A stretch of DNA of 64,000 bases, from positions 186,569 to 250,568 of the IMG/VR virus record IMGVR_UViG_3300026549_000001; one strand, given 5' to 3'. Both the position numbers and the translations under genes were made by a program. This stretch comes from a virus (taxonomy: Duplodnaviria; Heunggongvirae; Uroviricota; Caudoviricetes). Positions 1,735 to 61,403 of the stretch are shown piece after piece. Numbering within the stretch: position 1 is the first letter of the stretch; every line of letters starts with the position of its first letter. The notes below the pieces were generated by a model. That model worked only from the letters and a program-made list of their open reading frames with translations. It was not told the origin of the DNA and ran no database searches.

Positions 1735-1752
1735 TACTCCTTTTGAAACAAG

Positions 1753-2052
1753 TTAGTCTATTGAAACAAAATAGTCTGAATAATATCTACGAGAACAACT
1801 GTTGCACGGAGCTTCGTTAAAATTTGATAATCTGTGCTGACATTTTAGACAACTATATGGACGATGAAGGGTGAAATTAGGTAAAGCTACTACCTTAATA
1901 TTTTCATCTTCCTTGACATTTATCCATATTACATTTGTGCCATCTTGTTTGATTATTCTATTCCCTGTGTGGTCAATAAGATGTTGCTTTGCTTCTTCAA
2001 AGGTATCAAACATCCTCATAATAATACCTTCGGGGGTTTGTATTTTGAACAT
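1753..2052 (-). CDS. hypothetical protein
   Basis: 99-aa ORF in minus-strand gene train. Confidence 0.4.
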   Translation of the reverse strand: MFKIQTPEGIIMRMFDTFEEAKQHLIDHTGNRIIKQDGTNVIWINVKEDENIKVVALPNFTLHRPYSCLKCQHRLSNFNEAPCNSCSRRYYSDYFVSID

Positions 2053-9453: not shown

Positions 9454-10896
9454 TTAAACAAAAACCAACCCTGCATTTTGTTTTAGTAATTTACATTTAC
9501 TATATAATGCTTTTACTCCATCTTCAAATATTAAATATTGTGGGTTTCCTTTATATATGCCTTGTGAGCCTTTTAGTGTTCTCACTTTATTATTTACAAA
9601 CCATTTACTGCCAGGTAATATTCTATCTATTCTCTTTTTTATTGGTAAATGGTCTTTTACCTTTAAATTGTCTGCTCTCCCACCTTGTAGTATATATTCA
9701 TCCAAACTCAAAGAATTTTGTTCAAAAGCCCTATGACGGTTGGTTGCTACTACTTTTCCATCTAAATAATATTTCCTATGACAATTTTCTTGATGCACTA
9801 CTTGTCTGTCGTGCCGCCTATATTGTTTTATCTTATATATCTTTTTTGGTAACACAACTTTATCAATATTTAATTGAGAGAAAGCAATACAATAAGCATC
9901 TATATAGTGGTCTTTTTCTATTCCATATTTTTTGCGAATTGAAGAAGTCATATATCCATCAGTTAAATGTAATCTATAATCCTTTTGAAGATGCTTTACA
10001 AGAAAAGGAATAATTTGATTTAGAACGCTTAATGCTCTAAATTTTTTATATCTACCCTGTACTATATTTTGTACTTTGTCTTTCCAAGATGGAGAAGTAT
10101 GGATTAAAGAATGATGATATTCACAAAGACCAACTATATTAGAAACTGTATCACTTCCCTGTTTATGCTTTGGGATTATATGGTGATGGTGTTCTATTTT
10201 CTCTTTGCAAAATATACACTTTCCTTCTTGTGTTTTGTAGACTCTATCTTCTAAACTGCCATATCCTTTTAACAGATTTTTTGAAGAAATAACATCAAGT
10301 TCATTAAACCAAAAGGAATTAAGTTCTAAAACAATATCTGTTATTGGTAAAAATTTCCTTATCTTATTTATTAAATTTTGATGTGTTAAAAGTAATTGAT
10401 TCACAGTAGGAGTGAGCCATCCATCTTTCCTTTTACGGTTGCTATATCTTGATTCTTTATTTTTTATATACTTCAATGTAATTGGTGTTTCACATTGAGG
10501 TAATTTCCTTTGAAACTGCTCTGATTTTATTGTTCCATTTGTTTTTGCCCTTCTCTGTTTCTTTTTGCGCCTTGTTGTTTGTCTGTGCTTGCTTCTAAAT
10601 ACTTTTCTTTGAAACATCAATTGGGGAATATCTTTATTTCTTGTTTCAACAGAAGCACTAAATACAGGAATTGCCTTTTCAGTAATAACAGAAATACCTA
10701 TATTAGTTCTACCAGAGTCTACTCCAAGATATAGTTTTTGTACTTTATTAAGTTTTTCTTCTAATAATTGAATAGTAAATGGATTAGTATTATATACTTT
10801 TGCTTTATTATTTTGTAGAAGCCATCTCACATGACCACATCTGTTTGTAGGCATTAATGGCTCTCCATCTTTATTTATTACATATACATATATCAT
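9454..10896 (-). CDS. iscB: IscB RNA-guided nuclease (OMEGA system; IS200/605-family cargo, Cas9 ancestor)
   Basis: N-terminal PLMP motif (GEPLMPTNRCGHVRWLL); RuvC-I LGVDSGRTNIGISV; Arg-rich bridge helix RKVFRSKHRQTTRRKKKQRRAK; RuvC-II ITDIVLELNSF; zinc-finger HNH CIFCKEKIEHHHHIIPKH...SNIVGLCEYHHSLIH; RuvC-III EKDHYIDAYCIAF; 480 aa; all catalytic residues present. Confidence 0.85.
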   Translation of the reverse strand: MIYVYVINKDGEPLMPTNRCGHVRWLLQNNKAKVYNTNPFTIQLLEEKLNKVQKLYLGVDSGRTNIGISVITEKAIPVFSASVETRNKDIPQLMFQRKVFRSKHRQTTRRKKKQRRAKTNGTIKSEQFQRKLPQCETPITLKYIKNKESRYSNRKRKDGWLTPTVNQLLLTHQNLINKIRKFLPITDIVLELNSFWFNELDVISSKNLLKGYGSLEDRVYKTQEGKCIFCKEKIEHHHHIIPKHKQGSDTVSNIVGLCEYHHSLIHTSPSWKDKVQNIVQGRYKKFRALSVLNQIIPFLVKHLQKDYRLHLTDGYMTSSIRKKYGIEKDHYIDAYCIAFSQLNIDKVVLPKKIYKIKQYRRHDRQVVHQENCHRKYYLDGKVVATNRHRAFEQNSLSLDEYILQGGRADNLKVKDHLPIKKRIDRILPGSKWFVNNKVRTLKGSQGIYKGNPQYLIFEDGVKALYSKCKLLKQNAGLVFV

Positions 10897-11170: not shown

Positions 11171-11563
11171 TACTCCATATCTATCTAATGCAGTTTGTTT
11201 TCGACTTACTTTTTGTTGAGCAATTATTTCGGGGGTATGCGTTTTTTCTACCACATCTGCTCTTTGAAAAACATTAGTTACACCATACTTTTGTAAACAA
11301 GTTTGTTTTCGTTTTTCGGCAGTTCCAATAGACATACAGCTATTAGAACAATATGTATAATATCCTTCTGATAAAGAATTAAAGTTGGTAGGATTGCCAC
11401 ATACTTTACAATAACCCTTACCATAAAACTTCTCATAATACTTTTGTGCCGTTATGCTGTGGATTTGTCGTATATGTGAGGCTAATCCCATCAAATTGCT
11501 AAATGATTTACCACATATCTTACATGAGCAATCTATCAATTTCGTTTCCTTTACCTTCGTCAT
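11048..11563 (-). pseudogene. N-terminal fragment of the disrupted homing-endonuclease-like gene (C2H2-like Zn finger + YGV(x)N repeats); C-terminal ~40 aa probably read-through into inserted element
   Basis: aligns with residues 1-130 of the 293-aa paralog (CxxCGK...H...H; KYGVTNVFQ; RYGVEY); lacks the paralog's C-terminal nuclease-like domain. Confidence 0.55.
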
Positions 11564-12803
11564 AAAGTTTCTGCATAGTGTATTGTAAATCTTCGGGAAT
11601 ACAGTTTCTTATACTACCATTAGAACCCTCTATATAGTTTACACTTGGTAATAGAGATTTTGCTTCCATACAAGCGGCTTTTGTATACAATGCGATTGCC
11701 GCCAAGCAGTCGCCGTCATAATCTCCCCCTAATCCGCAGGTAATGATTGGGTTCAACTGCATAACATACTTATCTTCTTCCTTATCAGAAAAGACAGGTA
11801 TCATTCCTAAAATAGATAAAGCACCAATTGTAGGCTGTCTATTTATAAGAATATAATATTCATTATCTCTCAAATATTTATTAAGTGCAGTAATATCAGT
11901 AATACCGTTAGTATTAGTGAATTTGTCAAATAATTTGGGATAAAGAGTTTTAATGAAATATTTACCCAAAAGAGCAACATCTTCTGAAATATCAAAGTTA
12001 TTCGTAATTACAGCCCTTATACAGCCTGTAACTCCTTGCCCAATAATTTCACGGGCAAGAATAGATTTTTTGCCTTTCACAAGCATATCAAACAAGCCGT
12101 CATATACTTCGTGAATTTTAGCAAGGATAATTCTTTTGGCATCTAATTCATGAAATACATCTACAACAGTTTCTTGTGTATTTAAGATATTCTGAATAGC
12201 TTTCTTTTGTTTCAGAATATCCACAAAGATAGTGTTTAAATTCCCAAGAAAATATGAACCTCTTTGAATAGTAATCTTCCTTAACGATGTATGTGGGATG
12301 GATAATTTATCATGCACCTGTGCATTATACCATTCTTCTGTACCGCCTAAATAAAAGATAGCATCTTTACCAATAAGAACCTTATCTTTATCAAAGTCAG
12401 TTAAGTTAAGAGTAGTTAGATTAAATTCCACATATTCACCATCATAAAGAAATCCCCTATAATTTAGAATATCATCAACTAATTGATAGTCGGCAAAATC
12501 AGGTATATCTATTTGAAGATAGGGAATATCTAACATACCTTTAAAGGATATATAGAAATTCGGAACTCTGCGTTTATTTAATACTCTTGTTCCACAGTAT
12601 TGACAAATTCCTGGTTTAGTTCTCGCACCACAGGAACACTTACCGAACTTACCAAAAATCTTTGTAGAGAATATACCCTTATCATTAAATAAAAGATTAC
12701 CGTCTTTATCTTTAATTTTATGAGGTTGAAAAACAGAATGAGATGTAACTTCATTTATAGGTAGTTCTTTTATTTTCACTCTTTGTATAGTAACTTTGCT
12801 CAT
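11520..12803 (-). CDS. multisubunit RNA polymerase beta' subunit, N-terminal piece (beta'N)
   Basis: Zn-binding [26 protein letters not shown] matches beta' [46 protein letters not shown] matches NRQPTLHRLGIQAF; catalytic [13 protein letters not shown] matches NADFDGDQMAVH. Confidence 0.8.
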   Translation of the reverse strand: [427 protein letters not shown]

Positions 12804-15031
12804 AGAATACCCCCATTACTCTCTATGGAATTAAACCAAGTCATATCTTGTTCATCAAATTCAATATTAGATAGGTCTGATTTAGTTAATGATTTACCAT
12901 TAACTCTTATATCATATCCAATAGATTTCAAGACTGTTGCTAATTTTAATGATAATGAAGGATTATTAGGAAGTTCTCTTGTTTCTTCCATTTCAGCTAC
13001 CATTTTATTAGCCCCAATATGCTTGTGCATACTTCGTATTGATAACTCTTTAAGAATATTTATACTACCAGATGCTACAAGATTGAATTTTTCCATCTCA
13101 CCAAGTTTCAGCACTTTATCAAAAGCACCATCCGCTTTTGATTCAGAAATATGAATGCTTGCGTGATGATATACTCTCATCATTGTAATAATTCCAACAG
13201 GAATAATATTTGTTTCACCATTAAAAGTGATGACTGAATTATTAGCATACTCACGCATTTGGTCGCTATACTTTTCAATCATATTGGCAATAAAATCCTC
13301 ACCATCTTGATATTCAATACCGCTTGCATTAGCCCACGCTTCAAATATCTGTCCTAATGAACCTCTACGCATTGTAGAAAATCCTGAAATAATAACTTCA
13401 AGATGTCCTTCTTCCATATTGCCTACCTTTTTAGTAAGATAAGGCATTTCAGCATCAGGAACAATCTTTCCAACAGTACCTTTTGCTCCATGACGGTTTG
13501 TGATTTTATCTCCAAGTCTGAAAGGAATTTCCCAAGACAGGAATATTCTAACCCCATAATCTTCTACATAATCAAATCTATCTACTTTCACATTTTCATA
13601 ACTGCTCAAAATAGCTTCAGCCGTTGATGGATATATTTTTTGTAAAAGCTCAATAGAAATGTTATCTTTATTCTTCTCTAATTCAGCAACAACTTTATCT
13701 TTGGTTTCAAAATATAGTATATCTTTTGAATAGGTACGAAGTCTATTTGCAAAGGATTCTGAAATGATAATGCTATCACCATAGGTGAATCCTTTAATAT
13801 CTGTAAATCCTACACGAGCATTTATAAGATGAGTTAAAGGGTTAAGTTCTTCTTTAAGGGGAACACTTTGAGAGGTGAGTTTTGCGTTCATCATAATCCT
13901 TTTAGGCTTATCATTATTACCAAAAGGAGCAGATGATAGGCAAGAAAGGCGAACAGGTTGAGGCTCTATCATATACTCAAACATATTCTTTTCAACCCCA
14001 TTTTCCTCAATCCAAAGCATACCATCTTTGACGATTACATTATCAAGAAGTAGTCTTTGTCTACCCGCAGAAGAAGATGTAACGGTTTTGAAAGCATCAA
14101 AAAATCCTATAGTATCTGTATATGTAAAAGCGGGTTTATATTCCCCATTATATATATTAACAACTGTTCTGAAATTTTCCAAAGCATAAATAGGGCTTTC
14201 TGCTCTTATCAAACAGCCATCATTTCTTTCTCCTGTATAGAATACTTTATTTTGACTGGCAAACATTTGATTTATGCCTAATAGAATCTTCTTTGTTGGT
14301 TGAGCATAACGACCGCTCTTAAAGATTATATCTTCAAAATATTCTATACGCGCAAATTTATAATTGAATATAGAGTTGCTTTCAAAGGTGGGTAATAATC
14401 CTAATGCTTGCTTAAAGTTATCAATAGATAGCGGTTCATCTAATACACTTTGTAATAAGGCTCTTGACCTTTTAGAGAGTCTATTATTATATATTTCTTC
14501 TAATGTAGGCTCAAATGGATTTTGTTTTAGAACACAAGTAAACTTATCCTCAAATATATCATAAGTCCACCCCTCACCTTTAATGGTTTGGAAATCTACT
14601 TTACCGAGAAAGGTATAATAATCTCTTACAGCAGTAACCCTCGGAACATACTTTGTTCTGTTGATAATCCAAGTTAAATCTTGACAGGGGGTAGGAATTG
14701 CACAAATCTTAAATTCTTTATCAACATTAGTGCCTTTATATTCTACTGAATATACAGCAGAAACATCTATGCACATATTATAAAAATTAAGAGATAAGCG
14801 ATAGGAGTTCTTGAGTTTCCTATCAAAGTTTTTATCAAGAACTCCACTATTTATACCATTTGCGAGTTGACAAGGCTGTTCAACATTCCAATATTTCAAA
14901 CAGCATTCGTCAAGATGTTTTTGTATATCACTAAAAGGAATAGAATCATCTATTGGTTCTATTCCAAATAGTTTTATATTAGCCTTTTTCCAATAATTCT
15001 GTTCTCTATTGAAAAGTTGAATTTCTTTCAT
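12800..15031 (-). CDS. multisubunit RNA polymerase beta subunit (compact/C-terminal portion)
   Basis: GDKITNRHGAKGTVGKIV matches beta GDKMAGRHGNKGVISKI; PFGNNDKPKRIMMNAKLTSQSVPL matches the HND...NMQRQAVPL region; LGEMEKFNLVASGS matches GEMEVWALEAYGA. Confidence 0.75.
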   Translation of the reverse strand: MKEIQLFNREQNYWKKANIKLFGIEPIDDSIPFSDIQKHLDECCLKYWNVEQPCQLANGINSGVLDKNFDRKLKNSYRLSLNFYNMCIDVSAVYSVEYKGTNVDKEFKICAIPTPCQDLTWIINRTKYVPRVTAVRDYYTFLGKVDFQTIKGEGWTYDIFEDKFTCVLKQNPFEPTLEEIYNNRLSKRSRALLQSVLDEPLSIDNFKQALGLLPTFESNSIFNYKFARIEYFEDIIFKSGRYAQPTKKILLGINQMFASQNKVFYTGERNDGCLIRAESPIYALENFRTVVNIYNGEYKPAFTYTDTIGFFDAFKTVTSSSAGRQRLLLDNVIVKDGMLWIEENGVEKNMFEYMIEPQPVRLSCLSSAPFGNNDKPKRIMMNAKLTSQSVPLKEELNPLTHLINARVGFTDIKGFTYGDSIIISESFANRLRTYSKDILYFETKDKVVAELEKNKDNISIELLQKIYPSTAEAILSSYENVKVDRFDYVEDYGVRIFLSWEIPFRLGDKITNRHGAKGTVGKIVPDAEMPYLTKKVGNMEEGHLEVIISGFSTMRRGSLGQIFEAWANASGIEYQDGEDFIANMIEKYSDQMREYANNSVITFNGETNIIPVGIITMMRVYHHASIHISESKADGAFDKVLKLGEMEKFNLVASGSINILKELSIRSMHKHIGANKMVAEMEETRELPNNPSLSLKLATVLKSIGYDIRVNGKSLTKSDLSNIEFDEQDMTWFNSIESNGGIL

Positions 15032-23758: not shown

Positions 23759-24324
23759 TTAATCCGCTCCCAACAATTCTTCCCACCGCATCTTTTACAA
23801 CCATACTTTTCAGGGGTTTGAATAGAGGCACTCATACGAGAAGAATAATGCATCGCACCGCAGTTCTTACATCTGATTGCATACTTTTGGCTAATTAAGA
23901 CTTGCTCTTGCGACAATCCAAACTCATTCGCACTTTTAGTTCTTTGAATATTCAGATAAGGATATTTTCTATTTACTTTGTTGGCATAAATCTTCCACAT
24001 TCCCGTATGAGAGTGTCCATTCTTACAAGAGTGCAATATTTCATGCACCATTGTACTTAATACAGCATTATCGGGAACATCATCTCCCAAGATACGAGAA
24101 CTAATTTCAATAGTGGAATAACCGTTACGGGTAATACATCTACCCCATCTTTTCATGGCGCGAGTATTTATGACAATGGGCAAAACAATCTGTCCGAGAT
24201 TTTCTGCTCCTATGGAATCTATTACAATATCAAGAGCTTCATTGTATATTGCGTTAATATTCTTCATTAGAATAACCTCCGTTTTTACTATAATAATTAT
24301 ATCATAATAAAGAACGAAGGTCAA
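23755..24324 (-). CDS. SprT-like zinc metalloprotease with C-terminal zinc ribbon
   Basis: HEILH HExxH motif; CKNCG...CKRCGG. Confidence 0.6.
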   Translation of the reverse strand: MTFVLYYDIIIIVKTEVILMKNINAIYNEALDIVIDSIGAENLGQIVLPIVINTRAMKRWGRCITRNGYSTIEISSRILGDDVPDNAVLSTMVHEILHSCKNGHSHTGMWKIYANKVNRKYPYLNIQRTKSANEFGLSQEQVLISQKYAIRCKNCGAMHYSSRMSASIQTPEKYGCKRCGGKNCWERIK

Positions 24325-24344
24325 TAGTTTACTGCAATATATTT

Positions 24345-25628
24345 TTAGAAAACGCTATCTCTATCGGCGTATTGATTTTTAATATCTTCTTCTACGGCTT
24401 TATCACTCTCTAATCCAGATTTAGGATTAGGCAAATAAGTAAATTCACCTTTATTTACATTAGTAGAGTATAATAATTTATTTCCAACTGTACCATTTCT
24501 ATTCTTCTGTATACTCATTTCAAGCACACCATCTTTGAATCTAATAGATATGACTTTACTTGCATTGTGAGAGATACCATCTGAATTACGAATAGTCTCT
24601 AATGTAGGGGCTTCTGTCTTATCTTCTCCCGCCGCTTCTCGATTCGCCTGTACGATAGCCAATATGGGGATTTTCAACTCTACGGATAAAGTCATTAAAT
24701 CTTCAGCTATATTAGTAAGCGATGTTGTTGTGTTATCTCCACGCTTACCCCTTTCATCGTGCATATAGGATAATCCATCAATAACTACCATTTGTAGATT
24801 GTTGGCTTTTATCCAATTACCAATACGACTTACAGTAGGGGTTCTATCAAAATCTGACGGAGTAGTTACTAAAAACTTATTATTATATTTGGATAAAGAT
24901 TCTATATAGGATTTATAACCTCTTTCTATGCCATCTTTACCACGCATAAGCCCCATATTATTGAAATTTTTGAATAGGGTATCAAATCTATAACCAACCG
25001 AAGATGGTGTCATTTCGGGACTGAAAAAACCAACATTGTTTCCTTGTTCCCATACAGATATGGCTATTTTTTCAGCCACATAGCTTTTCAAGTTTGAAGT
25101 TCTTGCGAACAGAACAACTAAATCTTCTCCCCTTTGTAATCCCCCAATAATAAAATCTAATTCTTTGAAACCTGTGGAAAAGAAATATCTATTAGGATTA
25201 TTAACCCTGTCCTCTAATTCATCATATCTTATTTGTGCTTGCGATATTATATCTATACCACTACCACCTAAATTCATCATTAGTGGTTGTAACTGTGATA
25301 TGATATGTGATACTGCTTGGCGAGAATCTACATTAAAGCGATTTGCTCCTTCTTGAATAATTGGAACAGCTAATGTATAGATTCTATTTTCACGCAACTT
25401 ATCAATTAGATAGTCCCAACCCTCATTAACGGAAATGAATTCAAAATCCATAAATTCCTTAATAAAGGTTTCTCTATCGGGAACATTTTTATATTTATCA
25501 AAATGGCGTTTAATGAAATTAAAATGCTTTTCATACCCACCAAAATAAGACTTATCAATATTAGCACTAATAACAGGTGATATATCTTTAGTTTGCAGAA
25601 TTTTATTTATTACTTGAAGCTCTATCAT
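24345..25628 (-). CDS. DnaB-like replicative helicase (atypical Walker A)
   Basis: DnaB C-terminal RecA-like domain: FSPEM, MVVIDGLSYM, ILAIVQANRE; P-loop position reads ARTSNLKS rather than GxxxxGKT. Confidence 0.6.
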   Translation of the reverse strand: MIELQVINKILQTKDISPVISANIDKSYFGGYEKHFNFIKRHFDKYKNVPDRETFIKEFMDFEFISVNEGWDYLIDKLRENRIYTLAVPIIQEGANRFNVDSRQAVSHIISQLQPLMMNLGGSGIDIISQAQIRYDELEDRVNNPNRYFFSTGFKELDFIIGGLQRGEDLVVLFARTSNLKSYVAEKIAISVWEQGNNVGFFSPEMTPSSVGYRFDTLFKNFNNMGLMRGKDGIERGYKSYIESLSKYNNKFLVTTPSDFDRTPTVSRIGNWIKANNLQMVVIDGLSYMHDERGKRGDNTTTSLTNIAEDLMTLSVELKIPILAIVQANREAAGEDKTEAPTLETIRNSDGISHNASKVISIRFKDGVLEMSIQKNRNGTVGNKLLYSTNVNKGEFTYLPNPKSGLESDKAVEEDIKNQYADRDSVF

Positions 25629-26275
25629 GATTTCCCTCTACAATCCTTACTGTTGAATTTTAACACAATAGAACTATTATATATTCTACTTGCTAAAACA
25701 TTTCCAACATACTGTGATAATATATCTTTTGATTCTCTATTACTTGTATAAATATTGGCTCTACCATTAGATAGACGATTATCTATCAACATAAGAAGTT
25801 TAGAATACTCATATTCTGTTAATTTAGTTAAGGCTATATCATCCCATATAACTAAATCACAATTTATGATTTCATCTAAATCTACCTTATGGTCAAAATC
25901 TTTTAATTCGTGTAATAGTGTTGGAACATGAATAAAAATACCGCGAGTGCGTAAACCATTACCGCACCATATCGAATCAAAATACTTCAACAGTAATTTG
26001 ACTGCCCAACTGGTTTTTGATGTCCCAGTCTGTTCACTTGCAAGATATAATGATTTTCCTTTTTCTACAAATTCAACTATTCTCTCTTTTATTTTAGACA
26101 GTCTATCAAACACTTTTTTATCTTCCTCTGTGGCGGGGAATAACTCTCTTGGTGTTTGCAATAATTTTGGCAATTTTGAATGAGCAATAAGATAGCTCAT
26201 TTCTCTAAACCTTACACAATCAGGAGTACAAGAATTAGTACATACTTTTTTATACCAACACTCATTGTTTTTCAT
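25625..26275 (-). CDS. DnaC/IstB-like AAA+ helicase loader
   Basis: Walker A EQTGTSKTS; Walker B LVIWDDIA. Confidence 0.6.
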   Translation of the reverse strand: MKNNECWYKKVCTNSCTPDCVRFREMSYLIAHSKLPKLLQTPRELFPATEEDKKVFDRLSKIKERIVEFVEKGKSLYLASEQTGTSKTSWAVKLLLKYFDSIWCGNGLRTRGIFIHVPTLLHELKDFDHKVDLDEIINCDLVIWDDIALTKLTEYEYSKLLMLIDNRLSNGRANIYTSNRESKDILSQYVGNVLASRIYNSSIVLKFNSKDCRGKS

Positions 26276-26982
26276 CAGTATACATCTCCCTGTTGTCGTC
26301 TCAACCGTTCAATCTCGGCAATTTCTTCCTCTGTATATGAATTGCTCTTTACTCCATTAAAGGGTGTTGTTGCGGTATCAACAAATTTTAGCCATTGATT
26401 AGCAATAGCATTTCTAACTATTTCTACCTTATTACCCTTCATTGTATCTAACTGATATAGCATTTGCTTCATTTGATTTTTGTGAATAGAGTTTTGCTCA
26501 AAATCACAATAACGGCTTTCTTTGGGAGGGTGTAGTCGTATTGTGAAATAATCAATTAGAGCCTGTTGTAAATCTATATCTGTTGTATAGAGCTTTACCA
26601 TATCAATCATTTGAGTAAACAGGTTCTTTTTCTCTGGTTTTCTATTAGATACATTTTCGGAAATATCATCTTTTGGTTTAGCCGATTCTCTCTGCTTGGG
26701 AACAACTAATGTTTTGAAATCATCTTTATTTTTAACAATATAGCCATGCTTCCATAACTCATTAAGAGATTGGCGAACGGTTTGTTCATTATCGGAAGTT
26801 AAAGCTATTATATCATCTATATCGAATTTCTTTCTACCAAAAGAATGTAAAAGAATGTATAATCCTTTTGCAGATAAACTCAACGATATATCATCATTAG
26901 CGTATCTTGGAGAGGTAATATATGTTATTTTATTCTCATTAGAAAACATATCAATTATTCCACTCCTGTAAATTTTGAACAA
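26275..26982 (-). CDS. putative replisome organizer / replication initiation protein (N-terminal winged-helix)
   Basis: position immediately upstream of DnaC/DnaB-like genes; N-terminal wH-like segment. Confidence 0.35.
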   Translation of the reverse strand: MFKIYRSGIIDMFSNENKITYITSPRYANDDISLSLSAKGLYILLHSFGRKKFDIDDIIALTSDNEQTVRQSLNELWKHGYIVKNKDDFKTLVVPKQRESAKPKDDISENVSNRKPEKKNLFTQMIDMVKLYTTDIDLQQALIDYFTIRLHPPKESRYCDFEQNSIHKNQMKQMLYQLDTMKGNKVEIVRNAIANQWLKFVDTATTPFNGVKSNSYTEEEIAEIERLRRQQGDVY

Positions 26983-27289
26983 ATTTAGTAGTTTTAGAAG
27001 GAGATATGCTTTGCTCCTTCAGTTTCTTTATTACATTTCGACTGGTAGAAACTCGGAATGTTTCATCTTGGTCGATTCTATATCCTTTAAGGTAATTCTT
27101 ATAAAACAAAATGAAATTATTGTTTCGGTCTGGGTTAAATTTTAATGCGGCTTTGTAAAAAATTAAAAACCGCTCATGAATGTCGGCAACATCTTTATAT
27201 CCTACACTTTTTATCTTTTCCCAAACAGCCGTATAATTCTTTTGTTTTAACAATTCAATAATTTCAACTTGGTCGTTTGGTTGTTTCAT
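26951..27289 (-). CDS. hypothetical protein
   Basis: 112-aa ORF. Confidence 0.4.
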   Translation of the reverse strand: MKQPNDQVEIIELLKQKNYTAVWEKIKSVGYKDVADIHERFLIFYKAALKFNPDRNNNFILFYKNYLKGYRIDQDETFRVSTSRNVIKKLKEQSISPSKTTKFVQNLQEWNN

Positions 27290-27344
27290 TAAATATAATA
27301 CCCCATTTGATAAGCAAAAATGTTTTATTAAAGGTAATACAATT

Positions 27345-32742: not shown

Positions 32743-33546
32743 TTAGTTATGTGTTTCTTCATATATGCTTTTATAAAGAATGTCATATATGAGATTATCT
32801 AACCACTTTTCAAGTTCTATATTTGGTTCTTTTTTATTGTTTTCTATTTCAGAAGCCGCAAGAGCATTAATATTGGTTATAGTGAATTCTGCTATCTGTT
32901 TTGCATAGCGTTCCTTATATCGTCCTTCTTTAACTGAAACAAGCAGGCTCGGATTTTCAACCCACAAACAAGATTGGTAGCTATTTCCCGATATATAATC
33001 TCTTAAAAAATCATACAGTCTCATAAGATGATGTAATTGCTTCGGGTCATAACCAAACTTCTCTAATATTTCCAGTTTTGAGGGAAAAGGTTTACACAGG
33101 GCGTGATATTTCTCTAAAGCTACACCCTTAATTGCTTTAATATGTTTTGCTCTATCTAAACGAGCGATAGTTTCTCTTTGAGAAGTTAAATGCGACCACT
33201 CATTAGTGTACTTGGAGTTCTGATAAAAACAAACACTCCAAAGCAATTCCAAAAATTGAATATTCTGTTTCTTCAACAACTCAAACCAATGACGAATGTC
33301 CATAAAATTGATGTGTTCATCATTCTCCATTATATGAGTAAATGAAACAGGTTTAGAATTGCGAATTATATCAGACAAAGAAGGTATGATAATACAAACA
33401 CTATCAAAATCGCTCCCCTTATAATCAAGCCCATAATTACCACTTCCTTGATAATACAGACCGAATATATTATAATTGAATTTTTTAGCTTCTTCTAAAT
33501 GGCGTTGTAGTTGAGCATCAAACCATTCTTCTGTATGATAATTCAT
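32743..33546 (-). CDS. Pol-beta-superfamily nucleotidyltransferase
   Basis: GS-x10-DxD motif GSGNYGLDYKGSDFDSV. Confidence 0.5.
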   Translation of the reverse strand: MNYHTEEWFDAQLQRHLEEAKKFNYNIFGLYYQGSGNYGLDYKGSDFDSVCIIIPSLSDIIRNSKPVSFTHIMENDEHINFMDIRHWFELLKKQNIQFLELLWSVCFYQNSKYTNEWSHLTSQRETIARLDRAKHIKAIKGVALEKYHALCKPFPSKLEILEKFGYDPKQLHHLMRLYDFLRDYISGNSYQSCLWVENPSLLVSVKEGRYKERYAKQIAEFTITNINALAASEIENNKKEPNIELEKWLDNLIYDILYKSIYEETHN

Positions 33547-34399: not shown

Positions 34400-36421
34400 T
34401 TATTTAGATTTTAGCTTTATGCCTTGTGCGGTTCTACTACTACTTTCTTTATATTGAGCAGTATCAATAGGCTCTTGATATTTCTCCAACTCAATTACCT
34501 TATCTTGCGGTATTGCTCTCATATATTCTACAGGGGAGTTAGTATTAAATCCCTTTGTAAAACACAACTTATTTGATTCTGTTATATAAGCAGATAACTT
34601 AAACTTAACTAATTTATGATTATCAAACAGAATGACTAATAGATGGTCGGGGATAAGAGGGCAACTATACAGTATTGTTTCACCAACCTCTAACTTCTTT
34701 GCAATCTGCTTTATATCACTAATCTTTTGATTAGCTCCTTCGGGGATTTTCGCAATTGGGTATTTGAAAGTTTTTCCAAGAGAAGTGAATATCAATAACT
34801 CTCCCTTATTCTCAACTTCCCACTTAACAAAACCATTAGGCGTTTTGGCAGAAGATGTTGTAGATACTCTTTTAACAGTCTCATTATTGCAAAAGATAAT
34901 ACTATTTCCATCAGTATTTACTTCGGGCTTTGCGTTCTTTCTAAATGTAGGAAGCTCCTCATAATCTGTAATAATTTTACTCTTTCTCGGAATCCCATAT
35001 TTGGATTTAATACGCTGTAAGTCATCAATTATCTTATTATCTATCCCGCAAGCAATAGTTTCTTGTAATGTGGTTATATCAGATTTTAGCCCATTTATTT
35101 CTTTGGTCTTATTTAGAATATAATCTTCGTTAAAGTTCCTTAACTTGATTTCTGCAACAAATTCTGCTTGCACATCATCAAGACCAAATGCCTTTTTAAG
35201 TCCTTGAATTACCTCGGCATCATCTTTTGACTGTCGTACAATACTTACAGCTTTTTCTATATCAAGAAGAACTTTTTCAAGTCCTTCCAATAAATGTAGT
35301 TGATTTTGCTTCTCGTTAAGGTCGTAAGATAATTCGGTTTCAATCCACTCTCTTCTATGAGCAACCCAATTTTTTAATATATCAATAACACCCATAGATT
35401 GAGGGGTATTTTGATATACAAGATTCATATTGACATTAAAATTGTCCTGAAGGGGTGTAAGAGCAAGAAGTTTCTTTTTAAGTGCTTCTACATCTGTACC
35501 TCTTTTATAATCTATTGCTATTTTAAGACCGTTTTTATCCGTTTCATCCCTTACTCCTGTAATTTCGGGAATACGGTTTTCCTTATATGCTTTTATAATA
35601 GCATCTATAATATTTTCAAGAGAAGTAGAATAAGGAATTTCATCAACTTCTAAAATTCGTTCTTTTTCATTATTTGTAAAGACAGAACGGATTGTAATAG
35701 CACCTTGTCCACTCTCATATATGGATTTCATTTGCTCTTTATTAATAAGAATTTCGCCACCCGTTGTAAAATCAGCAGTAGGCATACTTTTCATTATAAG
35801 AGAAAGCAATTTACTGTTATCCATATTATAATTCTTTACTATTTCGATGGCGGCATCACACAATTCAATTAAATTAAATGAAGGAAAATTACAAGCAAAA
35901 CCAACCGCTATGCCCATATTTGGATTAGCTAATATATTAGGAAATGGTGCAGATACATACCTCGGCTCTTTCATTGTACCATCAAAATTATCAATCATAT
36001 TTGACGGATTCTTTTTTAAGCTGTCAAATAGCTCGTGACAAATTGGAGCTAATTGCATCTCGGTATACCTTGCCGCTGAAGGTTGGGTATCTGTGGAATA
36101 ATGTTTCCCAAACGAACCTTTCCCATGTATCATCGGACAAAGTATTGACTCTGCCTCTTTCGTTAGTCTGACCCCTGTAAGATATGAATCTGCGTGAGGG
36201 TTTATTTTCATAACCTGTCCACTTATATTAGCGGACTTTGCTCTTTGGTTATGTAATTTCATTGTGTGCATTGTATATAAGAACTTCCTTTGTGATGGCT
36301 TAAATCCATCTACTAATTCAGGCAATGCACGGGAAATGAGTACCGAAAGAGAATACGGCATCATCTTTTCTTTTATGACTTGCGATACTTCCTGTTGTTT
36401 AATATTTTCTGACATTTTCAA
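34400..36421 (-). CDS. type II DNA topoisomerase, GyrA-like subunit (T4 gp52-like)
   Basis: KPSQRKFLYTM and active-site region SAARYTEMQL. Confidence 0.7.
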   Translation of the reverse strand: MKMSENIKQQEVSQVIKEKMMPYSLSVLISRALPELVDGFKPSQRKFLYTMHTMKLHNQRAKSANISGQVMKINPHADSYLTGVRLTKEAESILCPMIHGKGSFGKHYSTDTQPSAARYTEMQLAPICHELFDSLKKNPSNMIDNFDGTMKEPRYVSAPFPNILANPNMGIAVGFACNFPSFNLIELCDAAIEIVKNYNMDNSKLLSLIMKSMPTADFTTGGEILINKEQMKSIYESGQGAITIRSVFTNNEKERILEVDEIPYSTSLENIIDAIIKAYKENRIPEITGVRDETDKNGLKIAIDYKRGTDVEALKKKLLALTPLQDNFNVNMNLVYQNTPQSMGVIDILKNWVAHRREWIETELSYDLNEKQNQLHLLEGLEKVLLDIEKAVSIVRQSKDDAEVIQGLKKAFGLDDVQAEFVAEIKLRNFNEDYILNKTKEINGLKSDITTLQETIACGIDNKIIDDLQRIKSKYGIPRKSKIITDYEELPTFRKNAKPEVNTDGNSIIFCNNETVKRVSTTSSAKTPNGFVKWEVENKGELLIFTSLGKTFKYPIAKIPEGANQKISDIKQIAKKLEVGETILYSCPLIPDHLLVILFDNHKLVKFKLSAYITESNKLCFTKGFNTNSPVEYMRAIPQDKVIELEKYQEPIDTAQYKESSSRTAQGIKLKSK

Positions 36422-37013: not shown

Positions 37014-39428
37014 TTACTCTAAATCCAAGTCAGTATATTCTTTCCCGTGTAATGTAATATATTCTTTTCTATCAGCAGAGTCGTTACCCATAAACAGTTC
37101 AAGATATTTCTCTGCTTCTTTAGCATCTTCCATTGTGACTCTTGTGAGATGTCTCGTTTCAGGAGACATGAAGATTGCCATAGTTTGATAATCCACCTCA
37201 CCCAGACCCTTGTTTCTCGATAATTTACATTTAATCCCATCTGTCATATCTTTCATTTCTTGGTCGGTAAAGGCATAGAGCATTTTTCCCTTATCTTTTC
37301 CCTCTAATATTTGAATTTCATATAAGGGCGTGTCCAAGAAATAAACATATCCTTGTTTTATAAGTTCAGGGGTTAGTCGATAGAATAGGGTAAGACAAAG
37401 TGCAATTATGTGGCAATTATGTACTATAATTCCTTCCAAATTGTCATCATCTACACAAACCATAAAGTTTTCATATCCTGGAACAGTCAAGTCATATACC
37501 TTAATAGGCACATCACAAACAATATGTTGCATAGACTTTATTCTATGATTATATATTTTTGAATGTCTGAAATAAATAGAGCTTATAGAATCATTTGGTG
37601 TTAGGCTTTGCGCTTCTTTATATGTACCATCATTTAGTAATATTCTATGGTCTGGGGTACATCTTACCACAAATCCATTTTCAAAGGTTAGCTCTACTAA
37701 TTCAGTTGTTTCCTTTGTTACACGCGGATTAACTGCTCTTGCGGGAACAACTTCTCCATTTTCATCTTTTGAGTATACCCACAACTCGGTAATGTTATTA
37801 TTGACTAACTCTTCAAAAGTATATGTATTCCCATCTAACGACTTAATTTTAGTGTCTCCAGTAAAGCACCCATCGGTGTCCTGGTCTGTAGCAAGAATTA
37901 TTTTATCGAATCTTCTGTTATTGATGTCAAAATTGCCAAGATTGTTTTTACCTTTGCCCCCATGCATTTCAACACCTGTACCAACTAATTTCATAATATC
38001 CATAATCAATTCATTTTTAAAGATACTACTATAATCAGCTTTTAGAGTATTTAATATTTTACCTCTTATAGCAAGAAGGGCTTGTGTTTCTCCATTTCTT
38101 GCTTGTTTCAAAGAACCCATTGCGGATAAACCTTCCGCAATAAAAAGTTCTCTATCTTCGGGGTTTTTATTTCGACAATCAACAAAATTCTTGATTCTAT
38201 CATCTAACTTCATTTTGTTAGATAGTTTTTGTTTAGTTGCTAATTTCTGTGCGGTTGCGCTCTTTCGAGATTGCACATTAATTGATACCTGATTGGTTAC
38301 TTTTTCAAGCTCTAATGGGTTTTCTTTTGCCCAATCCCTCAAAAACTTTGTTATCTGTTGAGCTAAAAATTCCTCAATGAATTTATTATTTATAGCCCTC
38401 TTGGTTTGGTTTTCGTATGAAGTTTCTGTACTAAAGGTATTTGACAGGAAAATCATTGAGTCCTGTATGTCCTCAAATTCAAGTTCCTTTGCTCTGTTGC
38501 TATCTGTCTTTTTTAATTCTGTTTTAAAGAACTCTAAAAGTGCTTTTTCTTTTGCTCGTCTGGGAGAGCCACCATATAGTAAAGGGGAGGAGTTGTGGAA
38601 ATATAGAGAATTTGGACTTTTATTACCAAATAAAATAACTACTTCTCCTTTTACCTTATAATTAGGCTTATCGGCTCTATCTTTCCCCGCACCTTCAAAT
38701 GTAAAATTAATGGCATCAGTTAGTGTTTCATTTCCCGCAAGTTCTTTTGCAAATCCTAAAATACCATTAGGATAAACTATTGTTTCTTTAGTTCCATCTC
38801 TTTTATCTATAAAATTAAAGGTTAATCCAGCATTTACAATTGCTTGTTCTTTTAACATTTGTAAATACCATTCTTTGTCAATATTGATGTCGGTAAATAC
38901 TTCTATGTCAGGCTTAAATATTTGCTTCGTTCCTGTTTTCTGTGGTTTGGCAGTATCTTTCTCTTTAATTAAGTTTCCGACAGGTTCGCCCTTTTCAAAT
39001 GACATTTTAAAGATTTTTCCATCTCTTCTTGATTCCACCTTAAACCACTCGGACGATGCTTGAGCCGCAAATGTTCCCAACCCATTAATTCCTAAACTAA
39101 AATCATAAGAATCATTGGAATATTTTGAACCAGAGTACATCTCGCAGAAAATAAGCTCCCAATTATATCTGTCTTCTGCCTTATTATAGTCCATAGGAAC
39201 TCCCCTACCAAAGTCTTCTACTTCAATAGAGTTATCATTGCCTATAGTTATATTTATGGTGTCGCCATAACCGCTTCGAGCCTCATCAATAGAGTTAGAA
39301 ATAATTTCAAAAACGGCGTGTTGTGTTCCCTGAATATCATTAGAGCCAAGCATTACCCCTACTCTTTTTCGTATTCTATCTGCCCCTTTAAGTGAACTTA
39401 TACTGCTATCATCATATTTTTTTGCCAT
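37014..39428 (-). CDS. type II DNA topoisomerase, GyrB-like ATPase/TOPRIM subunit (T4 gp39-like), containing a mini-intein
   Basis: ATPase EIISNSIDEA; TOPRIM EGLSAMGS and IILATDQDTDG; extein resumes CHIIALCLTLFYRL...PLYEI, matching GyrB SHIRTLLLTFFYR...PLYKV. Confidence 0.8.
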   Translation of the reverse strand: MAKKYDDSSISSLKGADRIRKRVGVMLGSNDIQGTQHAVFEIISNSIDEARSGYGDTINITIGNDNSIEVEDFGRGVPMDYNKAEDRYNWELIFCEMYSGSKYSNDSYDFSLGINGLGTFAAQASSEWFKVESRRDGKIFKMSFEKGEPVGNLIKEKDTAKPQKTGTKQIFKPDIEVFTDINIDKEWYLQMLKEQAIVNAGLTFNFIDKRDGTKETIVYPNGILGFAKELAGNETLTDAINFTFEGAGKDRADKPNYKVKGEVVILFGNKSPNSLYFHNSSPLLYGGSPRRAKEKALLEFFKTELKKTDSNRAKELEFEDIQDSMIFLSNTFSTETSYENQTKRAINNKFIEEFLAQQITKFLRDWAKENPLELEKVTNQVSINVQSRKSATAQKLATKQKLSNKMKLDDRIKNFVDCRNKNPEDRELFIAEGLSAMGSLKQARNGETQALLAIRGKILNTLKADYSSIFKNELIMDIMKLVGTGVEMHGGKGKNNLGNFDINNRRFDKIILATDQDTDGCFTGDTKIKSLDGNTYTFEELVNNNITELWVYSKDENGEVVPARAVNPRVTKETTELVELTFENGFVVRCTPDHRILLNDGTYKEAQSLTPNDSISSIYFRHSKIYNHRIKSMQHIVCDVPIKVYDLTVPGYENFMVCVDDDNLEGIIVHNCHIIALCLTLFYRLTPELIKQGYVYFLDTPLYEIQILEGKDKGKMLYAFTDQEMKDMTDGIKCKLSRNKGLGEVDYQTMAIFMSPETRHLTRVTMEDAKEAEKYLELFMGNDSADRKEYITLHGKEYTDLDLE
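37416..37868 (-). other. mini-intein (151 aa) inserted in the TOPRIM domain of the GyrB-like gene
   Basis: begins CFTGDTKI (block A), TPDHRIL (block B), ends VYDLTV...ENFMV...GIIVHN followed by +1 Cys; host protein motifs are contiguous when the segment is removed. Confidence 0.75.
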
Positions 39429-49573: not shown

Positions 49574-49662
49574 TGCCGTTTGATGGGACTCGAACCCACA
49601 TCGCATCAGGAGGTATTTCACCATAAAACTACTGGTGCATTTTGCCATTAAACTACAAACGA
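49574..49662 (-). ncRNA. tRNA-like element (canonical T-arm and acceptor, aberrant 9-nt anticodon loop and long variable region)
   Basis: GTGGG-TTCGAGT-CCCAT T-arm; acceptor TCGTTTG/CAAACGG; anticodon region CACCA-GTAGTTTTA-TGGTG; lies in its own promoter-to-terminator unit. Confidence 0.35.
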
Positions 49663-49767
49663 CACATTATGAGGACGGTTTTTAAGGTTTACGATTGTTG
49701 TCAACAGTTCCACGGCGAAAGTGCGGTAAGAAGAACCGTCCGAGAAAACTTCTCACCTGATGTTTAT

Positions 49768-57769: not shown

Positions 57770-58008
57770 AAAAGGTGTTAGAGTTTTTCAAAAATCTTAA
57801 AGTATAAATATAATATTTGCGCTATATTACATAAATTAAAAAGTATACAGGTATACTTGCCTTATAAGTTCTTTTTGAAAATACAATGTTTTATTTGATT
57901 GGAAAAGAGTTTTAATTATGCAAGAAATTATAATACTGTTAAATAAAACATCGTCATTCTTTGTACTGCCTCTAACAACAGCACATCAGTTAGGAGCTAC
58001 CTAACAAT

Positions 58009-58048
58009 TGGTGAGTCTGGTGGGATTTGAACCCACGATGCCTTGATT
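58009..58048 (-). other. 3' half of a split tRNA gene (anticodon-stem 3' strand TCAAG, T-arm GTGGG-TTCAAAT-CCCAC, acceptor CAGACTC, A, CCA)
   Basis: matches the 5' half at 58533..58569 (acceptor GAGTCTG); the two halves are separated by ~490 bp. Confidence 0.55.
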
Positions 58049-58071
58049 TTTTCGTCCTTCAGAAATGACAA

Positions 58072-58497
58072 TTACAAAGTTTGAATTACATCCATCAACT
58101 TAAAATCTTTTGCAAATAGTCCGTTTTTAGGTTGTCCATCTAACGGCTCAATCAGTCTTAATCTTTGCGCTCTTTTTCCACATACCCCTAATGGGATTAA
58201 ATAACATTGATTATTATGTATGGTTGCAAAAAAGTCAACATCATTTTGTGAATAAGAAAGATTTAAAGTTCCTTTGGTGTTTGTATGGCTTGTGCTTGTG
58301 GGAAAATCAAAATACTTACCGTTTTCTCTTTCTCTACAAGTCTTTACTTGAATCTTATACAGATGATTATTTATATCTGCAATAAAATCGTATCGTGAAC
58401 TTTGTACTAATGGCTTTGAAAGTAAAACTCCTAATTTTAAAAACTCCAAAGCTACTTCTTGTTCTGTTATTTCTCCAATAAAATGACTACTTAACAT
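58072..58497 (-). CDS. small PD-(D/E)xK-like protein encoded inside the split tRNA gene (candidate intron/homing endonuclease)
   Basis: 141 aa; YDFIADINNHLYKIQVKT (D...D/E-x-K-like); ORF flanked by 10-bp inverted repeat TGACAATTAC/GTAATTGTCA. Confidence 0.45.
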   Translation of the reverse strand: MLSSHFIGEITEQEVALEFLKLGVLLSKPLVQSSRYDFIADINNHLYKIQVKTCRERENGKYFDFPTSTSHTNTKGTLNLSYSQNDVDFFATIHNNQCYLIPLGVCGKRAQRLRLIEPLDGQPKNGLFAKDFKLMDVIQTL

Positions 58498-58532
58498 TTA
58501 ACCTTTCAAGTAATTGTCAATCTACTTGAGTC

Positions 58533-58569
58533 GAAAAAGTCAAGTGCCTTACCGCTTGGCTACAGACTC
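58533..58569 (-). other. 5' half of the split tRNA gene (acceptor GAGTCTG, D-arm GCC-AAGCGGTAA-GGC, anticodon-stem CTTGA + CTTTT...)
   Basis: Gln/Lys-type D-arm; candidate anticodon loop CUUUUAA (Lys UUU) if halves are joined; identity uncertain. Confidence 0.5.
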
Positions 58570-58597
58570 ACACACTATATTTTGAACACCTTTGAAA

Positions 58598-59390: not shown

Positions 59391-59502
59391 TGGCGGAGGC
59401 GGGAGGATTTGAACCTCCGTTGAACTATGACGAGTAGTCCCTTTGCCGTTCGCATACTCACAATGTTGTCATCATTGCCCCTTTGCGTACAATTACGCCC
59501 CC
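59391..59502 (-). ncRNA. aberrant 112-nt tRNA-like element (canonical T-arm/acceptor/CCA; possible anticodon arm CAATG-ATGACAA-CATTG = GAC; ~40-nt extra segment with internal duplication)
   Basis: GGAGG-TTCAAAT-CCTCC, acceptor GGGGGCG/CGCCTCC; does not fit a standard cloverleaf. Confidence 0.3.
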
Positions 59503-60971: not shown

Positions 60972-61352
60972 TGGTAGGGGCGGTGGGACTCGAACCCACA
61001 CGGTTAATAACCAACGGATTTTCTTACCACTATAGTTTTCACTACCACTTGAAGTGTTTGTGGTCTGGACTTAATCTTTACCCACTTATTTCAGTTGGGG
61101 TAGGGTATGTAAAGTCTCTACACACTTATTTTTCAATAATTGGCACGGTATTCCCATTGGGAAAGGGTTCACCGTTTAGTACCCATTCAGCATAAGTATT
61201 CCTACTTATCTGCTCCTGTCTACCAAACAAAATTATTTGGCTCTAATGGTATGCCCAATTTCACTTCCATTAGAATTCAAGGATATGTTGCATAACATTC
61301 CTCTCTTTAGATAATCTTGAAGTCCGCTGCGTCTGCCATTACGCCACGCCCC
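60972..61352 (-). tRNA. tRNA-Leu (UAA) interrupted by a 296-nt group-I-type intron (exons 61319..61352 and 60972..61022; intron 61023..61318)
   Basis: 5' exon GGGGGCG-TG-GCG-TAATGGCAGA-CGC-A-GCGGA-CUU ends in U; 3' exon AAAA-TCCGT-(long variable arm)-GTGGG-TTCGAGT-CCCAC-CGCCCCT-A-CCA; intron ends in G; insertion between nt 34/35 of the anticodon, as in known tRNA-Leu(UAA) group I introns. Confidence 0.7.
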
Positions 61353-61403
61353 CATATTTTTTACCTTCAATATTTATTTGTCAAAGAGCGTTATCGTGGT
61401 ATT

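Follow-up and report, generated by a model that had tools for sequence, protein, structure and literature searches.

A ribozyme-less homing endonuclease insert in the anticodon loop of a phage tRNA-Lys gene

Introduction

What becomes of a phage tRNA gene whose anticodon loop is occupied by an endonuclease gene, with no recognizable ribozyme to remove it? The question is raised by a 64,000-nt stretch of a Caudoviricetes genome (IMG/VR record IMGVR_UViG_3300026549_000001, positions 186,569 to 250,568), here called the window, in which a minus-strand tRNA-Lys(UUU) gene at 58009..58569 is interrupted by a 486-nt insert. tRNA introns of bacteria and phages are textbook group I ribozymes, whereas enzyme-spliced tRNA introns are considered a hallmark of archaea and eukaryotes. 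A sequence-only reading of the locus had placed a homing endonuclease gene (HEG) in the loop and had considered a group I intron. The analysis described here finds an endonuclease insert of a recurrent class, with no group I core, whose ends pair with each other and with the anticodon. Whether such an insert is spliced out, and by what, is weighed after the evidence has been presented.

A tRNA-Lys gene interrupted after the anticodon

All features of this locus lie on the minus strand, and tRNA positions follow the canonical numbering. The gene is interrupted exactly at 36|37. Its 5′ exon (58535..58569, 35 nt, positions 1-36) was delimited by ARAGORN in intron mode, virtual splicing and comparison with uninterrupted homologues (L147-L154). 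It reads GAGUCUG-UA-GCC..GGC-A-CUUGA-CUUUU, that is, acceptor GAGUCUG, D-arm and anticodon stem CUUGA followed by CUUUU, and it closes with the anticodon UUU (58535..58537). These features had been recognized before, in a half drawn from 58533, which runs 2 nt too far. The insert occupies 58049..58534, its boundaries given by the match to intact homologues and by the insertion rule of its class. The 3′ exon (58009..58048, positions 37-76) reads AA-UCAAG-GCAUC-GUGGG-UUCAAAU-CCCAC-CAGACUC-A-CCA, with discriminator A73 and an encoded CCA. In intron mode, ARAGORN reports a single tRNA, c[58009,58569], with an intron of ~484 nt, which bears out the proposal of one tRNA gene in halves 486 nt apart; at default settings the split gene is not called. 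tRNA finders in standard use miss split genes of this kind.

Joined at 36|37, the exons form a canonical cloverleaf with the loop CUUUUAA and A73, which ARAGORN calls tRNA-Lys(ttt) at default thresholds. The 34-nt joined core, GCCAAGCGGTAAGGCACTTGACTTTTAATCAAGG, is present without change in uninterrupted tRNA-Lys genes of eight other phage or metagenome contigs (L147-L154). Because of this identity, chance is excluded: the halves are parts of one real gene and the junction is correctly placed. The Lys-type loop predicted from the sequence alone is thereby upheld, and the homologous genes dispel the doubt, raised at the time, that the halves might be unrelated. A mini-precursor without the ORF (open reading frame) folds as a cloverleaf plus a rod (z = -5.7), and 0/200 shuffles fold as well.

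The encoded endonuclease

The ORF (58072..58497, 141 aa) lies inside the tRNA anticodon loop and not between genes, as a free-standing HEG would. Its product matches the Pfam family PF11645 (PDDEXK_5) with an E-value of 4e-22 (79.1 bits against a cutoff of 26.1) over profile positions 3-137 of 138; it also matches phrog_5018 and the structure of I-Ssp6803I (PDB 2OST; E 1.8e-8). Both the PD-(D/E)xK-like ORF and the comparison with I-Ssp6803I, an HEG in a tRNA anticodon loop, had been put forward from the sequence alone, and these matches, together with the position of the ORF between the tRNA-Lys halves, confirm them. E12, D37, Q50 and K52 are invariant among 13 diverse relatives (alignment A2) and align with YD...QVK of 2OST; we take them to be the catalytic residues, following the assignment made for I-Ssp6803I. 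The predicted protein is an I-Ssp6803I-type homing endonuclease with these residues intact.

Among six Lys-type relatives, identity along the ORF is 0.67-0.97 at codon positions 1 and 2 and only 0.43-0.63 at position 3, with third-position identity raised (0.70-0.79) only in the first ~10-15 codons. Judging from this pattern, the ORF is an ordinary protein gene under purifying selection, without an embedded conserved RNA. A ribosome-binding site, GAAAGG (58502..58507), lies 4 nt upstream of the ATG, where relatives read AAGAGG, AGGAG or AAGGAG. This motif had been offered as a P1 partner of the exon end; as the Shine-Dalgarno sequence, it is rejected as a group I guide.

In the endonuclease ORFs of L016/L047 and L042, TAG codons occur in frame: three in L042 and a single one in L016, where relatives have Gln. 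The phages concerned probably translate TAG as an amino acid, and several of the tRNA arrays include genes for suppressor tRNA(CTA).

Insert ends and anticodon form one covarying helix

The feature that we regard as decisive, and that the sequence-only reading did not contain, is that the anticodon stem is prolonged by a conserved helix of insert ends and anticodon, which covaries. The 5′ strand of this helix (helix A, 58529..58538) comprises U33, the anticodon U34-U36 and insert positions +1 to +6 (UCGACU). It pairs with 58048..58057, which comprises insert positions -9 to -1 (GGACGAAAA) and A37, and whose terminal AAA faces the anticodon. In general terms, the anticodon pairs with the last three nucleotides of the insert, and the first ~6 insert nucleotides plus the anticodon pair with the last ~9. 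The insert ends thus lengthen the anticodon stem by ~10 bp, after which come an internal loop, a second helix (helix B) and the ORF in a terminal loop.

Pairing was counted in a gap-free alignment of 40 inserts (A3), with 500 shuffles and slid-register controls. Helix A cells are paired in 84.6% of cases compared with 51% in shuffles, none of which (0/500) reaches the observed value; slid registers give 31-46%, so the signal is specific to the register. The pairs 34:-1, 35:-2 and 36:-3 are each formed in 39/40 inserts, by three to six types of base pair, and +1:-4 is formed in all 40. From 33:37 to +1:-4 every pair is formed in 97-100% of the inserts. The helix is therefore continuous through both junctions, with pairing best conserved at the junctions themselves and decaying further out. 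The anticodon is bracketed by the two exon-insert junctions, one on each strand of the helix, which are offset by 3 bp in a 3′-overhang topology. Compensatory changes are seen within the Lys-type relatives (UCG/CGA, UAG/CUA, UCA/UGA). G.U pairs are freely used, for instance CUG opposite UGG in the Pro type, and because of this the complementarity is taken as selected in RNA. It is neither a DNA repeat nor a target-site duplication, whose copies would run in the same direction.

An origin of the complementarity at the level of DNA was considered and rejected. Filling in a staggered cut gives a direct repeat of the anticodon, not its complement, and would leave the G.U pairs unexplained. Precise excision of the insert DNA through sticky ends was rejected as well: on paper, the overhangs would not be complementary.

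Beyond helix A, the 5′ strand of the internal loop (58520..58528, CAAGUAGAU) holds AGUA and is near-identical in L004, L005, L008 and L010, and the conserved 3′ strand (58058..58065, UUUCUGAA) carries GAA opposite it. By our own reading of the sequence, with no tool result behind it, AGUA opposite GAA fits a bulged-G (loop E-like) module. A second UCAAG copy after the 5′ half, to which meaning had been attached, falls within this conserved loop and is UCAUG in relatives. Helix B is formed by UGACAAUUAC (58510..58519) and GUAAUUGUCA (58066..58075); it closes the loop that holds the ORF, and its 3′ arm overlaps the stop codon at 58072..58074. It corresponds to the 10-bp inverted repeat of the sequence-only reading and proves to be a real helix, as pairing is kept with other sequences in relatives (UGGCAAUUAC/GUAAUUGCCA in L005, UGAUAGUUAC/GUAACUAUUA in L010 and AUUACAUC/GAUGUAAU in L008).

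Absence of a group I ribozyme

Rfam covariance models give no group I (Intron_gpI) signal in 57990..58590, even at E<=10, and none for a group I core in 23 (20+3) related compact loci; no small ribozyme is matched inside the insert, with positive controls working. The same group I search scores the intron of a neighbouring tRNA-Leu gene at 24 bits and finds a core of 38-65 bits beside every PF11645 ORF in bacterial introns of 634-660 nt, from Bacteroidota, Omnitrophota, Parcubacteria and cyanobacteria. The non-coding part of the window insert is only 37 + 23 nt, compared with the ~200 nt or more of structured RNA that mark a group I intron, and the earlier remark that this is too little for a ribozyme was right. 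The insert ends in A (58049) and not in the G that group I requires. Neither boundary is fixed across the class: U, C (Glu) or G (Pro) can close the 5′ exon, and A, C or G the insert. This variability makes the boundaries incompatible with the group I rules of a 5′-exon U and a terminal intron G. Thr-type members have a plain helix only, with ~30 non-coding nt. The insert fails every group I feature tested and, so judged, is not a group I intron.

A group I core that overlaps the ORF, as had been suggested, or a novel, tiny self-cleaving or self-splicing RNA built from the ~60 non-coding nucleotides is accordingly left as a highly improbable account. In its favour, the type member of the endonuclease family lives in a group I intron (PMC1995217), the 5′ exon of the window gene ends in U, and the internal loop of Lys-type inserts is conserved. 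Against these points stand the lack of any Rfam match in the insert where the controls are positive, the A at its end together with the C or G at the 5′ splice site of Glu and Pro members, and the bare helix of the Thr type. A core hidden in the coding sequence is further contradicted by third codon positions that vary freely.

The neighbouring tRNA-Leu(UAA) gene (60972..61353, minus strand) is itself split, at 34/35, by an ORF-less intron of 297 nt with a sub-threshold group I match (24 bits, E 4e-4 in a local search). It is presumably the first split tRNA implied by the sequence-only reading, which had counted tRNA-Lys as the second. Splicing of the tRNA-Lys insert in trans by this intron was rejected: the class has many different anticodons, and the guide of this intron could not fit them all.

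A recurrent class in phage tRNA genes

Protein-guided searches of IMG/VR yielded 18 and then 80 loci (designated L plus a number). In 43 of the 80, ARAGORN finds the ORF flanked by two tRNA halves, and ~4 more were recognized by eye; the cultured Enterococcus phage EFP01 has the same architecture. The exact pattern of the window's 3′ half had no match in the collection searched, so the window's own contig is not among its sequences. Every resolved member is interrupted at 36|37. Virtual splicing at this position gives standard tRNAs in 40/40 cases, of 14 anticodon types: Lys UUU, Thr UGU, GGU and AGU, Asn GUU, Ser GCU, Ile GAU, Met CAU, Arg UCU and ACG, Glu UUC, Pro UGG, Gly UCC and Gln UUG. 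Most inserts are 439-522 nt long, and in the few of 659-848 nt a group I core was likewise not detected. Within the sampled arrays, a second gene for the anticodon of the split tRNA occurs in 1/36 cases, compared with 10/190 for unsplit neighbours.

The compact, ribozyme-less form is found only in phage-type contigs and in no bona fide bacterial chromosome, where the ORF always accompanies a ribozyme. In cultured phages, PF11645 relatives are mostly free-standing between tRNA genes (My1, phi-pp2, River4, BCP12, SM5, HSTV-4). No description of ribozyme-less PF11645 inserts in tRNA genes was found in the full-text literature searched. The class is widespread, occurring in dozens of phage lineages, and, within that literature, apparently undescribed. 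That the locus belongs to a large mobile class was likewise no part of the sequence-only reading. The known kind to which it belongs is the homing-endonuclease insertion in a tRNA gene; it could become categorically new if enzymatic splicing in phages were demonstrated.

Two members have odd anticodons. L042 (~1425..1985) has an Asn-like tRNA body with the anticodon GCU, perfectly paired with the insert end AGC, and an aberrant T-loop; ARAGORN does not call its insert-bearing tRNA, whose exons look as if they were decaying or had been re-purposed while the helix was kept. L059 is a Thr AGU type with a compensatory change at 34:-1.

The anticodon loops of other phage tRNAs (Trp CCA, Leu UAA, Pro UGG) are interrupted, at 32/33, 33/34 or 36/37, by hairpin inserts that have no ORF. 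They lie at L013 1979..2126, L060 1151..1299, L076 2157..2280 and L073 987..1122, and the same type occurs at L016 2901..3036 (= L036 840..975, L047 401..536). ARAGORN gives their length as ~30-72 nt, and our own junction readings differ for some (~40 nt in L076). Their exons are intact, they are far too short for group I, and they do not follow the 36|37 pairing rule; no ribozyme match was obtained for those of L013, L060, L076, L073 and L016. These hairpins may be further enzyme-dependent or dead inserts.

Structured RNAs of other kinds are encoded near the insert-bearing arrays. ROOL RNA genes (<=267 bits) adjoin them at L053 2433..3019, which is EFP01, and at L063 2922..3435, L024 1..121 and L105 1..362; a drum RNA is present in L105 as well, and a full transfer-messenger RNA (tmRNA) in L062. 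A sub-threshold twister-P1 match (L074 1057..1107, 41 bits, E 1.4e-5) lies ~330 nt upstream of an insert-bearing tRNA-Ser, outside it.

Mobility of the element

EFP01 (KY549443; L003/L053) carries a 463-bp insert exactly at 36|37 of tRNA-Asn(GUU), without duplication or deletion, and 29 related Enterococcus phage genomes, with flanks 91-98% identical to those of EFP01, have an uninterrupted tRNA-Asn gene. The inserts of L048 and L049 differ at 1/463 positions and their exons at 4/76; those of L038 and L039 differ at 3/707 positions between flanks that are 25-37% divergent; and L064/L065 were likewise counted as a pair in which the insert is younger than the flanks. Because near-identical inserts lie in diverged flanks and 29 relatives of EFP01 lack the insert, the element is, by these sequence comparisons, actively mobile. 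The last three nucleotides of Asn-type inserts, AGC, are perfectly complementary to GCU, a Ser anticodon. This suggests that the element moved into tRNA-Asn(GUU) from tRNA-Ser(GCU), the loops of the two being one base apart.

The UCAAG copy was also considered as a target-site duplication and rejected, given UCAUG in relatives and a comparison of EFP01 with iF6 that reveals no duplication at all. At positions 428-452 of 463 in the EFP01 insert, the end of the ORF and the 3′ untranslated region resemble the phage's own tRNA 5′ exon (22/28 nt by eye; alignment score 28, 0/100 shuffles as high). This stretch may have been left by an ancestor that was free-standing and overlapped the 5′ half of a tRNA, as in phi-pp2. 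As a general mark of origin such a duplicate was rejected: it is significant in EFP01 only, and 39 other inserts show nothing. The EFP01 record (L142 19710..22050, 24172..27324) also has recA in two and DNA polymerase in three pieces, with ORFs between them, which suggests further introns or inteins.

A proposed mechanism and its rivals

Homing at the level of DNA, with the carrier made immune by disruption of the target, is well supported by the sequence comparisons. In a co-infecting phage with an uninterrupted tRNA gene, the I-Ssp6803I-type nuclease would cut the DNA of the anticodon arm, and repair of the cut would copy the element in. The carrier, its own target being split, would be immune to its nuclease.

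What would follow at the level of RNA is less certain. A protein endonuclease, rather than self-splicing, could cut both strands of helix A at the junctions; the cloverleaf would hold the two tRNA halves together after cutting; and an RNA ligase from the RNA-repair set of the phage or the host would seal them into tRNA-Lys. Protein-mediated cut-and-ligate splicing of this kind is posited tentatively, as the favoured reading, with a chance just below even. Speaking for it are the best-conserved pairs, which bracket both junctions, the 40 tested exon pairs, all of which form perfect tRNAs, and the split gene, which is nearly always the sole gene for its anticodon in the sampled arrays (duplicated in 1/36). 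The resemblance in architecture to archaeal introns with endonuclease genes counts in the same direction. The window also encodes the RNA-repair nucleotidyltransferase RlaP (32743..33546, minus strand; PF10127, E 1.8e-7), a marker of phage RNA-repair systems. The distribution of RlaP in jumbo phages is reported to mirror that of RNA ligases that seal broken tRNAs (PMC7824862; PMC12776372). With RlaP encoded in the window and so distributed, a capacity of the phage for ligation is plausible.

Several observations weigh against splicing. No RNA ligase, RtcB, RNase III, EndA or candidate splicing nuclease was found among 40 ORFs scanned in the 64-kb window, which is only part of a jumbo genome, and the spliced RNA is one that we infer from computed features of the sequence alone. 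RNase III, the obvious universal double-strand RNase, leaves overhangs of 2 nt and not 3 nt; it was rejected as the precise splicing nuclease for this reason, given the 3-nt stagger of the junctions. Cutting of A-form RNA would be unusual in a nuclease specific for a DNA sequence. Only phage arrays, in which tRNAs can be dispensed with, hold the compact form, and bacterial chromosomes keep the ribozyme, which is what would be expected if the compact form does not splice. Intact exons could be explained by recent invasion and a role as homology arms, and the odd anticodons of L042 and L059, with the helix kept, suggest that the helix can be maintained without a decoding function.

The insert's own nuclease is one candidate for the cutting enzyme. 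Under this rather improbable proposal, the insert would be a self-contained, protein-catalysed intron whose PD-(D/E)XK enzyme also cuts the pre-tRNA helix at both junctions, leaving 5′-phosphate and 3′-OH ends to be sealed by a phage Rnl-type ligase. On the tRNA side, the half-helix is identical in sequence to the half-site in DNA. I-Ssp6803I leaves a 3-nt 3′ overhang on DNA, like the 3-bp stagger around the anticodon.

The readings without splicing, in which the RNA is either a tRNA-scaffolded endonuclease mRNA or is excised as an intervening sequence (IVS) would be, have together a considerable chance, somewhat below even, and are the main rival. At the level of RNA, the disrupted tRNA pseudogene offered as an alternative from the sequence alone may thus be correct. 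In one of them, which we hold to be unlikely on its own, the endonuclease gene is an unspliced selfish insertion that permanently inactivates a dispensable phage tRNA gene. The tRNA would serve the element as a scaffold: RNase P and RNase Z would release a chimeric RNA in which helix and cloverleaf make a stable, end-protected endonuclease mRNA, and the exons would double as homology arms for homing. This would accommodate the absence of the compact form from bacterial chromosomes and of a ligase or nuclease partner among the window ORFs scanned. It would also fit the youth of the inserts relative to their flanks, under which exon integrity needs no selection for decoding, and the helices of L042 and L059, kept or even improved while the anticodon turns odd. 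The free-standing relatives between tRNA genes of cultured phages add that the family needs no splicing. Less easily reconciled with a scaffold are the peak of pairing conservation exactly at the junctions, with all three anticodon bases paired in 39/40 inserts, the ~14 tRNA species that the exon pairs form without a flaw, and the rarity of a duplicate gene. Loss of a Lys-UUU, Thr-UGU or Asn-GUU tRNA costs the phage and should favour spliced variants.

An improbable relative of this account is excision without ligation, in which host RNase III cuts the long stem and frees the ORF RNA, leaving the tRNA as two non-functional pieces. The continuous, duplex-like rod of ~17-25 bp with the ORF in its loop does resemble rRNA processing stems and IVSs, and RNase III is present in essentially all bacterial hosts. 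However, the 3-bp stagger of the junctions does not match the 2-nt overhangs of this enzyme, and the superior conservation of the exact-junction pairs would be left unexplained.

Comparison with known systems

I-Ssp6803I and the Synechocystis tRNA-fMet group I intron share with the window element the protein family PF11645, a target in a tRNA anticodon loop and mobility by homing. The type intron, of group I, has 655 nt for an ORF of 150 codons (PMC1995217). Bacterial PF11645 introns of tRNA-Arg and tRNA-fMet genes (compared via PMC13011429) measure 634-660 nt with a core, whereas the window insert has 486 nt, ~60 of them non-coding, and no core. It lies at 36/37 and not at 33/34, in a class belonging to phage tRNA arrays and not to bacterial chromosomes, and, where I-Ssp6803I-type group I introns form P1/P10, its two ends are paired together and with the anticodon.

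Archaeal bulge-helix-bulge (BHB) introns may carry homing endonuclease genes, for example the LAGLIDADG genes in rRNA introns. Like the window element, HEG-bearing archaeal introns have an exon-intron helix that extends a host stem, an ORF in the loop and no ribozyme; the 3′ part of the intron is base-paired to the anticodon region, and the junctions lie on opposite strands with a 3′ stagger. To our knowledge, bacteria do not have the EndA splicing endonuclease. A BHB motif was sought in the insert and rejected: the two 3-nt bulges and 4-bp helix that define it (PMC4090602; PMC6125680) are absent, and the helix of the window class runs unbroken across both junctions, which are 3 bp apart. Archaeal BHB introns lie at 37/38, and the endonucleases that some carry are LAGLIDADG enzymes, whereas the window insert lies at 36/37, encodes a PD-(D/E)XK enzyme and belongs to bacterial hosts. 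If spliced by proteins, the element would work like an archaeal endonuclease-bearing intron rather than like the group I intron of I-Ssp6803I.

Free-standing phage HEGs in tRNA clusters (T4 SegB, the F-Tfl enzymes of T5 and the PF11645 homologues of My1, phi-pp2, River4, BCP12, SM5 and HSTV-4) occupy the same niche and presumably have the same targets, and the PF11645 homologues are of the same protein family as the insert ORF. They leave tRNA genes intact, whereas the window gene lies inside the anticodon loop and brings a structured RNA stem. The IVSs of bacterial 23S rRNA, which sometimes bear ORFs, are excised by RNase III without religation. Their ends, too, form a long stem that continues a host RNA helix; however, a fragmented rRNA works and a tRNA broken in the anticodon loop does not, and a 3-bp stagger misfits RNase III. 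Another point of comparison is the phage system of break and repair in tRNA anticodon loops, in which PrrC cleaves tRNA-Lys and T4 Pnkp/Rnl1, RtcB or RlaP carry out repair. Such systems supply the sealing step that the splicing model needs, namely ligation of an anticodon-loop nick, classically in tRNA-Lys(UUU). They mend damage and do not remove an insert; the tie to the window element is an analogy.

Other features of the window

The window phage is a Firmicutes-type jumbo phage, with a split multisubunit RNA polymerase, gyrase, RecA and SpoIID. RNA polymerase fragments are encoded as separate ORFs on the minus strand at 11520..15031 and 9454..10896 (Rpb1 domain 2 and Rpb2 domain 6), adjoined by an RRXRR-family protein; non-phiKZ jumbo phages of Firmicutes typically have this arrangement. 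A Gram-positive host is indicated by SpoIID and YkuD domains elsewhere in the window. The GyrB homologue (37014..39428, minus strand) contains an intein (Intein_splicing/PT-HINT, residues ~535-671), which is another mobile element in the same genome; GyrA is encoded at 34400..36421.

Two further RNA features lie on the minus strand. A 112-nt element at 59391..59502 has the acceptor GGGGGCG/CGCCUCC with G3:U70, a T-arm and GCCA, and scores 27.5 bits, below threshold, with the Rfam tmRNA model; it may be a miniature tRNA-like or tmRNA-like RNA. At 49574..49663 lies a class II-type tRNA with a 9-nt anticodon loop, GUAGUUUUA, for which the ARAGORN call changes with the mode: Asn(gtt), Gly, or Lys(ttt) with a 2-nt intron.

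Significance

Phage tRNA repertoires are under-counted, because tRNA finders miss split genes. EFP01, a cultured carrier with 29 insert-free relatives, makes the fate of the insert experimentally tractable. If the insert is not spliced, the element would represent a new strategy, in which one tRNA serves a homing endonuclease as its target, its homology arms and its RNA scaffold together, and phage tRNAs are knocked out as the endonuclease spreads. If it is spliced, phages would possess an enzymatic tRNA-splicing pathway, and the class would be a direct model, open to test, for an idea of long standing, namely that enzyme-spliced introns arose from group I introns by loss of the ribozyme. Were the insert's own nuclease to make the cuts, the element would stand, as a living intermediate, between tRNA introns spliced by ribozymes and those spliced by enzymes, and would be the first case of enzymatic tRNA splicing in the bacterial world.

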